This document shows, one piece after another, positions 1 through 5,564 of a stretch of DNA of 5,564 nt. This DNA comes from a virus. Lineage: Duplodnaviria > Heunggongvirae > Uroviricota > Caudoviricetes. Both the position numbers and the translations under genes were made by a program. A model generated the notes under the pieces. That model worked only from the letters and a program-made list of their open reading frames with translations, searched no databases and was not told where the DNA came from. The DNA lies in the IMG/VR virus record IMGVR_UViG_2609460125_000012; one strand, written 5' to 3'. Within the stretch, counting starts at the first letter, position 1, and every line of letters begins with the position of its first letter.

Positions 1-51
1 CTGCATGACAAGGTCATCGGGCATTATCTGAACATAAAACACTATCAGTAA
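1..51 (+). CDS. insB: IS1 transposase InsB, C-terminal end (partial; 5' end outside window)
   Basis: In-frame translation [16 protein letters not shown] with TAA stop at 49-51, 15 bp inside the IS1 terminus. Confidence 0.85.
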   Translation: MHDKVIGHYLNIKHYQ

Positions 52-66
52 GTTGGAGTCATTACC
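1..66 (+). mobile_element. IS1 insertion sequence, right (insB-proximal) terminus; body of element lies upstream of the window
   Basis: Bases 1-51 read in frame as ...[16 protein letters not shown]-stop, which I recognise as the InsB C-terminus, followed by the IS1 terminal inverted repeat gttggagtcattacc ending at 66. Bases 1-66 are the exact reverse complement of 5363-5428. Confidence 0.9.
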
Positions 67-254
67 GAATCGGGCAATGGCCATGCGATACCGGATGCAA
101 GAAATCGCTGAAAAAGCGTATGTATTGTGGAATGACTGAGACCCAGACGCTGAGCGATGGCCCGGATGGTCAGTTTATCTTCAAATCTTAAACGCAGGGC
201 ATCAGGCAAATAAGAACGGAAGCAGGGAATATCTTTTGTTGTCTGGGAATTCAT
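67..254 (-). pseudogene. Transposase-like HTH protein, N-terminal 62 codons only; reading frame runs into IS1 (ORF 45..254)
   Basis: Translation MNSQTTKDIPCFRSYLPDALRLRFEDKLTIRAIAQRLGLSHSTIHTLFQRFLASGIAWPLPD contains a classic helix-turn-helix (TIRAIAQRLGLSHSTIHTLFQR) of the kind seen in IS30/IS21-type transposase N-termini. The frame continues into IS1 sequence and stops at 45, so the gene is interrupted. Confidence 0.4.
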
Positions 255-352
255 CGTTCGTGTCCATCAATATAGATGGGCGCGATTGTTGCCAGACAGG
301 ACAATTTTCACAAGACGTCGCTGATGGGGCGCTTACCGTAATGATGGCGACA
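67..352 (-). mobile_element. Unidentified IS-like element, left end (possibly IS21-family-like), truncated by the IS1 at 66
   Basis: On the minus strand a TG-initiated sequence (tgtcgccatcatt...) starts directly after the holin stop codon. It carries three CCCATC(A/T)-type direct repeats within about 100 bp, then an ATG at 254 opening an HTH-containing ORF. This layout resembles an IS end with transposase binding repeats; family assignment is inference. Confidence 0.35.
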
Positions 353-568
353 TTATTCACCTCTCGCAGCCTTACGCTTGTCTTCTCTGATTTTGAAGTA
401 CAGATTTGTCAGATAAGTCAGGAAGCCCAGAACCAGACTCCCCAGTACACCAATCGCAGCCCACTGTGACGGACTGACCTGATCAAGCCACTGTAAAAAC
501 CAGTAGCCAGCACTGCCTGCGGAGGTGCCGTAGGCAATGCCCGTTGAAATTTTGTCCATGGATTTCAT
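353..568 (-). CDS. Class II holin (pinholin), phage 21 S21 / EssD-EssQ family, 71 aa with dual-start motif MKSM
   Basis: ORF translation [71 protein letters not shown] matches my recollection of the phage 21 S holin (Met1 antiholin and Met4 holin starts, two TMDs, basic C-terminus). A GGAGGTGA Shine-Dalgarno lies 6 nt upstream (minus strand, 571-578). Confidence 0.9.
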
Positions 569-675
569 AGCCTCACCTCCGCAAATAACGGATGGCGTAG
601 TTTTACACTGAGAAATGAAAGGGATTTGAAAAGAAAAAACCGCAAAAGCGGGCGAAACGATATATACAGTAAGGA

Positions 676-854
676 AAGCACTCTATCCAACAAACCACTC
701 ACAGTTAATCGGAATAAAAGCAGAGTGCTTATGAATGATCGCCTGCCCGAAGGTTAGTATTTCTGCACAGCAATTTTGCAAAAAAAAGCGATCATTCATA
801 ACTTAAACGTCTTTCAGTCACTCCGGGATTTCCCATCATCGCAGACTGAAAGAC
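676..854. repeat. Three tandem long-loop inverted repeats (potential stem-loops) in the tRNA-holin spacer
   Basis: Perfect inverted repeats read directly: aagcactct 676-684 with agagtgctt 722-730 (9 bp); atgaatgatcgc 731-742 with gcgatcattcat 788-799 (12 bp); gtctttcagt 809-818 with actgaaagac 845-854 (10 bp). Confidence 0.6.
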
Positions 855-860
855 TCTGAC

Positions 861-935
861 TGGAGCGGGCAGCGGGAATCGAACCCGCATCATCAGCTTG
901 GAAGGCTGAGGTAATAGCCATTATACGATGCCCGC
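861..935 (-). tRNA. tRNA-Gly (anticodon UCC), 75 nt, CCA encoded
   Basis: Reverse complement GCGGGCATCGTATAATGGCTATTACCTCAGCCTTCCAAGCTGATGATGCGGGTTCGATTCCCGCTGCCCGCTCCA folds as a canonical cloverleaf with anticodon loop CUUCCAA and discriminator U73 typical of Gly. It appears identical or near-identical to host glyT as I recall it. Confidence 0.85.
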
Positions 936-938
936 ATA

Positions 939-1014
939 TGGTGCCGACTACCGGAATCGAACTGGTGACCTACTGATTACAAGTCAGTTGCTCTACCTAC
1001 TGAGCCAAGTCGGC
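939..1014 (-). tRNA. tRNA-Thr (anticodon UGU), 76 nt, CCA encoded
   Basis: Reverse complement GCCGACTTGGCTCAGTAGGTAGAGCAACTGACTTGTAATCAGTAGGTCACCAGTTCGATTCCGGTAGTCGGCACCA has a 7-bp acceptor, GCTC/GAGC D-stem, anticodon stem ACTGA/TCAGT with loop CUUGUAA, and GTTCGATTCC T-arm. It resembles host thrU. Confidence 0.85.
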
Positions 1015-3754: not shown

Positions 3755-3825
3755 CTGTTTTCTCTGCTGGCGCAGCAGGTGCCAGTTGTTCAGGCTGACG
3801 GATGGATTGTAAACCAGAACGACCA

Positions 3826-3853
3826 GAAAAAACAAAACCCGCCGAAGCGGGTT
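3826..3853 (-). terminator. Rho-independent terminator at the 3' end of the hok mRNA
   Basis: Minus strand reads aacccgc-ttcg-gcgggtt (a UUCG tetraloop hairpin) followed by ttgttttttc; plus-strand arms are acccgc 3837-3842 and gcgggt 3847-3852. Confidence 0.7.
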
Positions 3854-3921
3854 AAGTGCGGGTGCGTTGAGGATGCCTGACACATCAGCGGTGGCGAGGG
3901 ATTTCTCCCCCGCCGGGTCTC

Positions 3922-4077
3922 TTACTCCTCAGGTTCGTAAGCTGTGAAGACAGCGACCTCCGTCTGGCCGGTTCGGATTCGTACCTCGCAGAGGTCTTTC
4001 CTCGTTACCAGTGCCGTCACTATGACGGTTAAACAGATGACGATCAGGGCGATTAACATCGCCTTTTGCTGCTTCAT
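3922..4077 (-). CDS. hokD: Hok/Gef-family type I toxin (51 aa), HokD/RelF-like
   Basis: Translation MKQQKAMLIALIVICLTVIVTALVTRKDLCEVRIRTGQTEVAVFTAYEPEE matches my recollection of HokD (RelF). AAGGAG Shine-Dalgarno sits 8 nt upstream (minus strand). The ORF track's 70-aa version starts at an in-frame upstream ATG (4134). Confidence 0.9.
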   Translation of the reverse strand: MKQQKAMLIALIVICLTVIVTALVTRKDLCEVRIRTGQTEVAVFTAYEPEE

Positions 4078-4281
4078 AGCCTGCTTCTCCTTGCCTTTCG
4101 GCACGTAAGAGGCTAACCTACATGTGTTCAGCATGGATTGAGCCTCAGATTAATGTTAAGCGTCTTGCAGGACGCGTAATGTTAACTGGGGCTTTTCTCT
4201 ATCTGCCTTTTGGTGTTCATGCCTGAGACAGATAGCCTCAAGCACCCGCAGTCATTCTACTTAACTAAGATTTCCCTGCAA
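4078..4281 (-). promoter_or_regulatory. hok mRNA leader with candidate promoter, 5' tac-like element and mok-equivalent start
   Basis: Minus-strand -35 TTGCAG (4281..4276), 16-nt spacer, -10 TAGAAT (4259..4254). The predicted 5' end tgcgggtgcttgaggc resembles the plasmid R1 hok mRNA 5' end as I recall it. An upstream ATG at 4134 sits at the position mok occupies in R1. The 5' segment (about 4236-4250) is complementary to the 3' segment cctcaacgcacccgca near 3855-3875. Confidence 0.5.
4126..4195 (+). ncRNA. Candidate Sok-like antisense RNA (coordinates approximate)
   Basis: On the plus strand, TTGCCT (4091-4096), a 17-nt spacer, then TAACCT (4114-4119) form a promoter-like pair antisense to the mok/hok translation initiation region. 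A downstream hairpin gcgtc-ttgcag-gacgc lies at 4160-4175. This matches the position of sok in hok/sok loci. Inferred, not verified. Confidence 0.35.
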
Positions 4282-4336
4282 ACCGTTTTTGTCCGGCACA
4301 GTAAATATCCAACTAAACCAATAGCGTTCGCTGTAT

Positions 4337-4516
4337 TTACCGCCAGTATTCAATGCACATGACCGCCATGAACACCCCTAAAAAAAGGGCATTTATATGT
4401 CCAAACATTAATATCAAAACATCAATTTTTTCCATATACCTTGCTGTGAAGATGATGGGCATACATGATGCGAACAACCAGAACGCAACAAACAAAAACT
4501 GCAATGCGTTTTTCAT
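4337..4516 (-). CDS. Hypothetical small hydrophobic peptide (59 aa, two predicted TM segments) in an AT-rich island
   Basis: Frame MKNALQFLFVAFWLFASCMPIIFTARYMEKIDVLILMFGHINALFLGVFMAVMCIEYWR with AGGGGG Shine-Dalgarno about 6 nt upstream of the ATG at 4516. The surrounding region (about 4340-4700) is markedly AT-rich, so this could also be a chance ORF in a regulatory region. Confidence 0.25.
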   Translation of the reverse strand: MKNALQFLFVAFWLFASCMPIIFTARYMEKIDVLILMFGHINALFLGVFMAVMCIEYWR

Positions 4517-4728
4517 TATTCCCCCTACAATCAATGTGCAATAACATTTAAACACACCTCAATTTGGCCGGACATATAAATATCTAAACCAGAAAAAATC
4601 ACTTACATAGCGTTACAAACTCTTTAGTCTAAATACTCATCGTAAAACATTCCCCATACTTATCAGTCCGTTCCGCGCCAGGTAGCTTATTGCCTTATCT
4701 GGCAACCTATAATCAGGTTTCCGCTTTT

Positions 4729-5151
4729 TCAGTTGGCTGGTCGTTTAACCGACATAGTTAACCCATTAATCTGGTTGCCGGATGCTGGTGGATTTTCGCG
4801 TTTTAATTGTTCATAAAAGTGCACAGCTTTAACCAGTTCTTCTGATGTAACCGGGACTGGTGGGGCAGTGAATAAGGCCTGAATTTCATAGTTCGGCCTG
4901 TCGTTACAATCCTCTTTTTTCGGTACATATTTCCAGTCACCAACCCACAACTCCCCCTGAGAGTCCATAACACCTTTTTTCACGTAGCGATATCGCCACG
5001 CTATCGGCTCTGCTTCCAGCGATGCCCGTGCAATTTTGAATAACTCGCCCTCTACTCGCGCCATCCCTGAATTGGGGTGGCATTTCGTAATCGCTATTTT
5101 TAATTTGGCTTCTTCGATTAATTGTTCTTTTGTTAATTCAGTCATTTTCAT
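4729..5151 (-). CDS. Hypothetical protein, 140 aa, no family recognised
   Basis: Clean 140-codon ORF (MKMTELTKEQLIEEAKLKIAITK...WVGDWKYVPKKEDCNDRP...) with balanced composition and a TTA-rich codon choice suggesting foreign origin. The antisense ORF 5036..5224 is less plausible. Confidence 0.55.
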   Translation of the reverse strand: MKMTELTKEQLIEEAKLKIAITKCHPNSGMARVEGELFKIARASLEAEPIAWRYRYVKKGVMDSQGELWVGDWKYVPKKEDCNDRPNYEIQALFTAPPVPVTSEELVKAVHFYEQLKRENPPASGNQINGLTMSVKRPAN

Positions 5152-5362
5152 TACCGCCCTGGTAATGCTGCCACCAGCGAAAATGGTTAATGGAAAACGG
5201 GCTTCCGTTCTATACCAATCGTAGTGGCAAACCGATTGTCAGCCGGGATCTATTTACCTGCAATAAAACTTTACCACCACGCGAGGTAGAGCCGAATTTT
5301 GGTGCGATCTGATGGGAAGACGAAGGAAAAATCCTGAACACGAAAAATTACCTCCAAATGTA

Positions 5363-5564
5363 GGTAATGACTCCAACTTACTGATAGTGTTTTATGTTCA
5401 GATAATGCCCGATGACCTTGTCATGCAGCTCCACCGATTTTGAGAACGACAGTGACTTCCGTACCAGCCTTGCCAGATGTTGTCTCAGATTCAGATTATG
5501 TCGCTCAATGCGCTGAGTGTAACGCTTGCTGATAACGTGCAGCTTTCCCTTCAGGCGTGATTCA
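5363..5564 (-). mobile_element. IS1 insertion sequence, right terminus, inverted relative to the copy at 1-66; body continues beyond window end
   Basis: ggtaatgactccaacttactgatag... from 5363 is the IS1 terminal inverted repeat. 5363-5428 is the exact reverse complement of 1-66, and the internal sequence continues as IS1-like insB-region sequence to 5564. Confidence 0.9.
5378..5564 (-). CDS. insB: IS1 transposase InsB, C-terminal part (partial; 5' end outside window)
   Basis: Reverse complement of 5378-5428 encodes ...[16 protein letters not shown]-stop, identical to 1-51. The frame stays open to the window edge. Confidence 0.85.

Follow-up and report, generated by a model that had tools for sequence, protein, structure and literature searches.

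The 5,564-nt stretch of DNA analysed here (the window) most probably (about 90%) carries a chromosomal prophage that decayed step by step at its native site, the two IS1 ends bracketing its interior stemming from two independent events and not from the arrival of a composite transposon. By gene content and order the interior is the remnant of a lambdoid prophage at tRNA-Ser/mtfA (Table 1). On the right, IS1 entered the integrase gene int by simple insertion and made its own 8-bp duplication; the left IS1 probably marks the joint of the event that removed the lysis and late genes.

Table 1. Features of the window (positions 1 to 5,564), in order along the strand shown.
Feature	Position	Strand	Remarks
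Left IS1, IRR end (insB-proximal)	1..66	+	66 bp before contig break; full 768-bp copy in relatives
ISSfl3 stump (IS66 family), 270 bp	67..336	-	cut by IS1 at 66/67; HTH Pfam matches
rrrD' (phage lysozyme, first 8 codons MNNVAIIT)	337..360	-	cut by ISSfl3 at 336/337; aligned to intact rrrD of NZ_CP065613.1
Class II holin (phage 21 S-type), 71 aa	353..568	-	Pfam PF04971, E=1.4e-35; annotated class II holin in L001
Four phage tRNA genes: Gly-TCC, Thr-TGT, Lys-TTT, CAT-anticodon	861..1170	-
Late-gene antiterminator Q, 229 aa as called in source scaffold	1364..2053	-	Pfam PF06323, E=1.9e-91
RusA Holliday-junction resolvase	2050..2415	-	Pfam PF05866
DUF968 / HNH-like protein (YdfU-like), 352 aa	2416..3474	-	Pfam PF06147, E=2.2e-63
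hokD/sok type I toxin-antitoxin locus	3922..4247	-	Pfam HOK_GEF, E=3e-23; Rfam RF01794, 118.9 bits
Hypothetical phage protein, 140 aa	4729..5151	-	no family match
Internal deletion joint	5161..5169	.	L001 matches up to 5160, L014 from 5170
DUF4224' (excisionase-position gene without first 61 nt)	5170..5311	+	100% identical to DUF4224/int region of many E. coli prophages
int' (tyrosine integrase, first 17 codons, MGRRRKNPEHEKLPPNV)	5312..5362	+	cut by IS1
Right IS1, IRR end (insB-proximal)	5363..5564	-	202 bp to contig break; last 61 codons of insB

The window is identical (100%) to positions 4691-10254 of the draft scaffold KN150715.1 (locus L005), where gaps of 100 N lie on both sides of the window contig. 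The assembly thus broke off inside a repeat at each end, and the partial IS1 ends are not biological truncations, a point missed in the preliminary description; more generally, when a sequence stretch has an incomplete IS copy at either end, the cause may be no more than contig breaks in a draft assembly. The closest relatives of the contig are Shigella flexneri loci. Among the loci that share its junction, papers identify CP020753 as S. flexneri Y394 and CP026768 as S. flexneri 93-3063, and identity with the S. flexneri loci suggests that GCA_000754175.1 also belongs to this species. The arrangement of the window recurs, with full IS1 copies, in L004, an independent gap-free contig of 1.77 Mb. 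These two were the only assemblies recovered with both IS1 copies, so that the sub-lineage is barely sampled.

A repeat search returned arms at 1-66 and 5363-5428 (66 nt, 100% complementary, 5296 nt between them), in agreement with the preliminary description, which had called them perfect reverse complements. It had also taken both for the insB-proximal terminus of IS1 facing inward; in the relatives each arm does lie within a 768-bp IS1 with its IRR inward, and the C-terminus of InsB with its stop codon is readable on the + strand at 1-51. The full copies of L004 (4126-4893, right, and 10189-10956, left; 768 bp each) differ at 3 positions in 768 bp (99.6% identical). Over 768 bp a full copy shares 99.7% identity with E. 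coli elements annotated 'IS1 family transposase'. In the full-length relatives the element ends in GGTAATGCTGCCAACTTA and TAAGTTGGAGTCATTACC, and both L004 copies have the length and the imperfect terminal inverted repeats (GGTRATG...) of IS1. Their called products match the Pfam families Zn_ribbon_InsA, HTH_Tnp_IS1 and DDE_Tnp_IS1, that is, insA (zinc ribbon and HTH) followed by the DDE domain of insB, with the insB 3' ends inward. The 8-9-bp target-site duplication of a simple IS1 insertion is found at the right copy, and the left copy has none.

Shigella chromosomes contain 229-348 IS copies, among which IS1 and IS600 have expanded, and deletions and inversions mediated by IS elements are common in them (PMC7373316; PMC8072062); the S. 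flexneri element list in PMC7373316 includes IS1, IS600 and ISSfl3. An S. flexneri genome of 4.58 Mb has about 114 IS1 copies; at this density, chance alone would place about 14 pairs of neighbouring copies within 5.3 kb of each other, about 3.5 of them with the IRR ends inward. The inverted, inward-facing arrangement is thus not surprising in so IS1-rich a genome.

Read from the right, the interior runs int' (17 codons), DUF4224', the joint of a deletion of ∼ 8 kb, hokD/sok, DUF968, rusA, Q, four tRNA genes, an S21-type holin and rrrD' (8 codons). This collinear series of int, early, nin-region, Q and lysis genes, together with a tRNA attachment site, is that of a lambdoid prophage. The toxin-antitoxin locus, tRNA array and holin named in the preliminary description were recovered by Pfam, Rfam and tRNA searches as hokD/sok, four tRNA genes and a P21-type holin. 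The hokD/sok locus comprises the Hok ORF (3922-4077), an overlapping mok-type ORF that extends to 4134 and the Rfam sok match (4072-4247); hokD is annotated as such in L001. The closest phage records share 94% identity over 78-82% of the query. In the related E. coli loci L001 and L014 the module of the window lies inside a fuller prophage whose int adjoins tRNA-Ser and mtfA. The fuller prophage of E. coli AMSCJX02 reads Q, hokD, cro/cI and exo-DUF4224-int-tRNA-Ser-mtfA, with further genes between. E. coli FDAARGOS_944 matches the window over 337-5160 with 99.6% identity, and its prophage goes on into rrrD, a lysis gene, terminase and portal. Among the relatives one side of the remnant is occupied by mtfA-int; the other side carries DUF4376, ipaH, a tail-fibre assembly gene and zinT, and the tail-fibre end of the same prophage lies beyond the nest of IS elements on the left.

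About 8 kb is missing at the 5160/5170 joint, comprising immunity, replication and recombination genes that are present in relatives. This internal deletion was missed in the preliminary description; none of the 5,426 E. coli genomes searched has this joint. It contains an orphan 9-mer, GGTAATGCT (5161-5169), identical to the 9 nt with which the IS1 IRL begins. The segment 5161-5362, which begins GGTAATGCTGCCA, was considered as the end of a divergent IS1-family element and rejected: 5170-5362 is 100% identical to E. coli prophage DUF4224/int sequence and only 9 nt are IS1-like.

With the Qin/DLP12-like prophages of E. coli K-12 the remnant shares the order hokD/sok, DUF968, RusA, Q, class II holin, RrrD, as well as an integrase beside a tRNA gene and decay by IS elements. 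Unlike them it has an array of four tRNA genes between Q and the holin, is located at tRNA-Ser/mtfA, has lost the whole immunity and replication region and, in S. flexneri, has an ipaH effector gene linked to its tail-fibre side.

The right junctions in L004 read gggtaTACATTTG before and TACATTTGgagg after a 768-bp IS1 that lies inside int and is flanked by its own 8-bp direct repeat TACATTTG; the uninterrupted int of L003 has TACATTTG once. In the window the last 8 nt of int', CAAATGTA (5355-5362), are one copy of the target duplication. The source scaffold itself also holds the remaining half of int on an IS1 IRL, with the second copy of the duplication at 767-774. Since the rest of int, followed by mtfA, sits directly outside the right IS1, nothing was deleted by this insertion. 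Six loci (L002, L003, L006, L007, L008 and L010, from five assemblies, two of them identified as S. flexneri via papers) match window positions 1-5362 at 99.93-99.94%; beyond this point they have an intact or longer int without IS1. They share the interior and an identical left IS1 junction, and as they have the left IS1 but not the right, the left IS1 predates the right one. A look-up of called genes for the 43-aa ORF that spans the int'/IS1 junction gave no match.

The left IS1 differs in its flanks, gcccgattc on one side and cgttaatcg on the other, which are not a duplication. Its outer flank is IS600 (annotated as such, 99% identity) and its inner flank is ISSfl3; since it joins ISSfl3' to IS600' without a duplication, the left IS1 would be a deletion or recombination joint, probably the one at which the lysis and late genes disappeared. 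In L009 the inner junction is kept, but the IRL end of IS1 abuts zinT' and a further 5.9 kb is lost. The preliminary description had offered survival of IS1-mediated deletions as one origin of the interior. This part of it stands for the left side, with the ISSfl3/IS600 joint and the additional loss in L009, and fails for the right side, where the rest of int lies just beyond IS1. An exact search for the left junction among one genome per GTDB species found none; Shigella presumably has no separate entry there. The stretch 67-336 is a piece of ISSfl3 and not of the prophage, which the preliminary description had overlooked. Its terminal repeat (GTAAGCGCCCC... on the - strand) ends at 336, and of the accessory gene tnpA, which starts at 254, the first 63 codons remain. 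The stump matches a copy on NZ_CP065614.1 at 100% identity and further copies at 98-99.6%. The ISSfl3/rrrD boundary lies at 336/337, as alignments with two ISSfl3 copies and with intact rrrD show.

These data are consistent with a model of four steps. An internal deletion of ∼ 8 kb, leaving the 5160/5170 joint, would have removed the immunity, replication and recombination genes, and ISSfl3 would then have inserted into the lysozyme gene rrrD. In a third step an IS1-associated deletion or IS1-IS1 recombination may have taken away the rest of ISSfl3 together with the lysis, packaging, head and tail genes, leaving the left IS1, present in all 10 related loci, to join ISSfl3' to IS600'. Later, in one sub-lineage, a second IS1 transposed into codon 17 of int by simple insertion with an 8-bp duplication, giving the right IS1. 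The inverted layout with both IRR ends inward is then a by-product of two unrelated events amid roughly 100 IS1 copies. The data show directly the anatomy, the two junctions, the duplication, which relatives have each IS1, and the native context; we infer the order of the first three steps, and the third may have been either adjacent deletion by IS1 or homologous recombination between two IS1 copies. Stages recovered among the relatives include one IS1, two IS1 copies and further deletion.

IS1 pairs in either orientation can mobilise the DNA between them; Tn9 has direct and Tn1681 inverted IS1 copies. The preliminary description had considered that the interior could move as a composite transposon. 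On such a reading the unit, comparable to Tn1681, would have moved whole to this site or would be spreading the hok/sok, tRNA and holin cargo. L004 does carry two full-length, 99.6% identical IS1 copies, both encoding transposase domains, around the cargo, and like Tn1681 the pair is intact, inverted and encloses a few kb of non-IS DNA. Unlike Tn9 and Tn1681, however, the unit lacks a duplication at its outer ends (...TACATTTG against CGTTAATCG...), one IS1 has a duplication of its own, the interior is native to its site, one-IS1 intermediates exist in relatives and a single location is known. With the right IS1 inside int and the remaining int immediately outside it, the cargo is not foreign to the DNA just beyond the IS copies; it is continuous with the native prophage and its attachment-site context, and occupies one chromosomal site in 10 loci. 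Neither IS1 junction was found in 5,426 E. coli genomes, and none of 72,556 plasmids holds at least 80% of the interior; the unit is absent from both sets. Repeats around each IS1 and the same interior within a full prophage of related genomes had been named beforehand as signs of independent insertions. Comparison of the duplications gave a repeat at the right copy, none at the left and unmatched outer ends, hence no composite unit; comparison of genomes gave the six loci with the interior, the left IS1 and an uninterrupted int, and the module within the fuller prophages of L001 and L014. Most of what would speak against mobility is thus present. A composite transposon as the account of origin is contradicted by these observations, and we regard it as extremely improbable. 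A literature search on this specific remnant and Tn1681 gave nothing useful.

That the 5.3-kb interior flips by RecA-dependent recombination between the inverted IS1 copies, with both isomers in the population, is possible in principle and on balance unlikely; inversion was another of the three alternatives in the preliminary description. The repeats are 768 bp long, 99.6% identical and 5.3 kb apart, IS-mediated inversions are frequent in Shigella (PMC8072062; PMC5596473), and the neighbouring int'-mtfA block of L005, which ends at IS1, is flipped relative to L004. However, the interior has the same orientation with respect to the IS600/yebW side in both two-IS1 assemblies (only L004 and L005), the flipped block lies between N gaps in repeats and its orientation may reflect a choice made during scaffolding, and inversion would have no apparent regulatory consequence in a remnant devoid of repressor, replication and late structural genes. 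Were the orientation of the L005 block real, the right IS1 would have taken part in recombination and the pair may not be inert, which counts against the stepwise account, as does the capacity in principle of any two IS1 copies to mobilise the DNA between them. It is very unlikely, though, that the 6.8-kb IS1-remnant-IS1 unit is active in the two-IS1 sub-lineage, flipping appreciably or transposing occasionally as an inverted-IS1 composite. If it did move, a hok/sok addiction module (a plasmid-stabilising toxin-antitoxin locus), an array of four phage tRNA genes and a holin could be carried to plasmids or other sites; nothing here indicates movement. Assembly artefact, with IS1 reads wrongly joined to the contig ends and no IS1 at one or both junctions, might be suspected here, as the window is a short-read contig whose ends lie in a high-copy repeat next to N gaps. 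Both junctions are identical base for base in the independent, gap-free L004, the left one is also present in nine other loci, and the source scaffold itself holds the matching int half with its duplication copy. Independent assemblies thus already contradict an artefact, the chance of which is negligible.

Stepwise decay through simple insertion and deletion is an ordinary kind of event. As in IS1 insertions described in Shigella (PMC7373316, PMC8072062), the right copy is a simple insertion with an 8-bp duplication that disrupts a gene, here int; as in Shigella IS1-associated deletions, the left copy joins unrelated sequences without a duplication, and one relative has suffered further loss from the same end. 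Nothing substantive differs from these known events, to which one prophage remnant adds one more example. Its interest lies in being a clean stepwise case of IS1, IS600 and ISSfl3 dismantling an S. flexneri prophage, and it is otherwise of little significance.

Two details of the interior deserve mention. The tRNA gene with the CAT anticodon is called Met by ARAGORN and Ile in the RefSeq annotation, and Q has a run of nine T at 1401-1409 in the window against eight in all relatives.

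A repeat finder returned two 66-nt arms (1-66 and 5363-5428) that are 100% complementary and spaced 5296 nt apart, and the + strand of window 1-51 encodes the C-terminus of InsB, then a stop codon. Ten related loci were gathered by exact-protein look-up with the 69-aa ORF at 45-254 (- strand). In these loci each arm is part of a 768-bp element with the ends GGTAATGCTGCCAACTTA and TAAGTTGGAGTCATTACC, in which Pfam Zn_ribbon_InsA, HTH_Tnp_IS1 and DDE_Tnp_IS1 were found; the insB ends of both elements face inward. A full copy is 99.7% identical to E. coli elements annotated 'IS1 family transposase'. 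The preliminary description, which had reported perfectly complementary, inward-facing insB-proximal IS1 ends, is correct as stated.

The window corresponds at 100% identity to positions 4691-10254 of the source scaffold locus, L005 (scaffold KN150715.1, assembly GCA_000754175.1), where it is adjoined on either side by runs of exactly 100 N. It is therefore a single short-read contig, and the partial IS1 at either end (66 bp and 202 bp) marks where assembly stopped inside a high-copy repeat. The left junction (GGAGTCATTACCGAATCGGGCAATGG) is common to several loci, including CP020753.1 and CP026768.1, which according to published papers are S. flexneri 1c Y394 and S. flexneri 93-3063. Neither this junction nor the right one (CCTCCAAATGTAGGTAATGACTCC) is present in any of the 5,426 complete E. 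coli genomes searched.

The right IS1 entered by simple insertion and duplicated 8 bp of its target. In L004 (the locus from assembly GCA_900457225.1, a gap-free 1.77-Mb contig) the full element has the octamer TACATTTG on either side, and L003 has a single TACATTTG in an uninterrupted int. In the related loci L002, L003, L006, L007, L008 and L010, identity to window 1-5362 exceeds 99.9%, and int then runs on with no IS1 in it. In the window int starts at 5312 and is interrupted after 17 codons; the source scaffold has its remaining half, joined to the IRL (the end opposite the insB-proximal IRR) of an IS1 with the second TACATTTG copy. The block of truncated int, mtfA and a second integrase has opposite orientations in L005 (346-4690) and L004 (302-4241). 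In L005 it lies between an IS1 and the N gap next to the window's right IS1, and the ends of its contig, an IS1 IRL and an IS3-family repeat, both adjoin N gaps; the flip may reflect either a true inversion mediated by IS elements or a contig mis-oriented during scaffolding.

The left IS1 is flanked by unrelated sequences (gcccgattc and cgttaatcg), a pattern seen in all full loci, and its outer flank is a truncated IS600. Past this, related loci carry DUF4376, an ipaH-type NEL effector, a methyltransferase and a tail-fibre assembly gene, then zinT-msrQP. These last are chromosomal genes that neighbour serU and mtfA in the K-12 gene order; the mtfA-to-zinT region is therefore one prophage remnant, the lysis-to-tail middle of which was lost at the joint of truncated ISSfl3, IS1 and truncated IS600. 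In L009 (AGRC01000040) the inner junction of the left IS1 is kept and the IRL end adjoins a truncated zinT, which means that 5.9 kb more has been lost (IS600 remnant, DUF4376, ipaH, methyltransferase and tail-fibre assembly gene). Such left-IS1 joints may have arisen through intramolecular transposition of IS1 or, alternatively, through recombination of two IS1 copies in direct orientation.

Past the IS600 end (locus position ~11862), L004 and L005 run into yebW-yebV-rsmF-letAB-proQ-prc, whereas L003 runs into the ipaH/zinT side; this IS600-bounded rearrangement is common to the sub-lineage with the right IS1. The whole region occurs twice in S. flexneri Y394 (CP020753.1 2041187-2061396, L006, and 2066863-2087072, L007). 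The two copies lie 25,676 bp apart and are 99.94% identical over at least 15.9 kb; this segmental duplication takes in both the remnant and the ipaH side. A 24.8-kb ipaH island is mentioned in the Y394 paper.

The preliminary description had considered that the interior could move as a composite transposon, and had proposed a check for target-site duplications. The right IS1 has its own 8-bp duplication, the left IS1 none, and the outer flanks of the pair none. Because of this pattern, the one-IS1 relatives, the continuity with native surroundings and the lack of any match to the interior at ≥ 80% coverage among 72,556 plasmids searched, we reject a composite origin; judged from sequence, the IS1-interior-IS1 unit may conceivably still have a capacity for future movement. 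Inversion had also been suggested, and the interior has an identical orientation relative to the IS600/yebW side in L004 and L005, the only two loci with both IS1s. The alternative that the interior is a survivor of IS1-mediated deletions holds for the left IS1, an old deletion joint, but not for the right, a simple insertion into int. The old deletion joint and the recent insertion are two independent events, and the two IS1s happen to bracket the remains of a lambdoid prophage at the serU site of S. flexneri.

The 4.58-Mb genome of Y394 contains 345 IS elements, of which IS1 makes up 33% (paper on S. flexneri 1c Y394). Placed at random, these IS1 copies would form ~14 adjacent pairs no more than 5.3 kb apart, ~3.5 of them with IRR ends inward. 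In L009 the left IS1 and a second IS1 (3481-4248 and 8755-9522, direct orientation, 4.5 kb apart) bracket a 4.5-kb chromosomal segment nearby (truncated zinT, msrQP, hiuH, truncated hprRS). The inward pair is expected background in this organism. The observation holds, and the biology behind it is ordinary and already known in kind; IS-driven decay of S. flexneri is well described (PMC7373316; PMC8072062).

Features of the interior
Feature	Position	Strand
270-bp terminus of ISSfl3, an IS66-family element: end repeat and first 63 tnpA codons	67-336	
Boundary of ISSfl3 and phage lysozyme gene rrrD (codon 8 adjoins ISSfl3)	336/337	
After truncated rrrD, in order: S21-type holin, four tRNAs, Q, RusA, DUF968, 92-aa ORF, hokD/sok, two small ORFs		-

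The first 270 bp of the interior are ISSfl3, not prophage, and are 100% identical to a copy on NZ_CP065614.1. The toxin-antitoxin locus, tRNA array and holin described earlier are present. E. coli FDAARGOS_944 (NZ_CP065613.1) is 99.6% identical to window 337-5160. Past one end of the match its prophage carries rrrD, a lysis gene, HNH, terminase and portal, and past the other end Ea22, DUF977 and cI/cro-type genes. The sequence from 5170 on recurs at 100% identity in the DUF4224/integrase junction of prophages in ~1,100 E. coli genomes; in AMSCJX02 (E. coli) this point directly precedes tRNA-Ser and mtfA and sits ~8 kb further on in the same prophage. The prophage remnant therefore contains an internal deletion joint at 5160/5170, which was not found in the 5,426 E. 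coli genomes searched. The orphan 9 bases at 5161-5169 (GGTAATGCT) are identical to the start of the IS1 IRL (GGTAATGCTGCCAACTTA) over its first 9 nt, or over 13 nt when the next GCCA of DUF4224 (5170-5173) is counted, and may be a scar left when an earlier IS1 was itself deleted via GCCA microhomology.

FDAARGOS_944 is the least-decayed close relative of the window prophage. Its 261-kb plasmid (NZ_CP065614.1) carries ospC4 and ISSfl3, so this strain, named 'E. coli', looks like an invasion-plasmid-bearing EIEC/Shigella-like strain. Q contains a T9 homopolymer (1401-1409) at its 3' end, where the five relatives compared at base level (L002, L003, L004, L008, L010) have T8; this alters the C-terminus of the protein, which is 229 aa long instead of 227 aa. 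A frameshifted Q is annotated in FDAARGOS_944 too, and T9 could be true variation or a draft-sequence error. The CAT-anticodon tRNA at 1095-1170 is Met by ARAGORN; a 99.6% identical copy is tRNA-Ile in RefSeq and would be of the lysidine-modified type.
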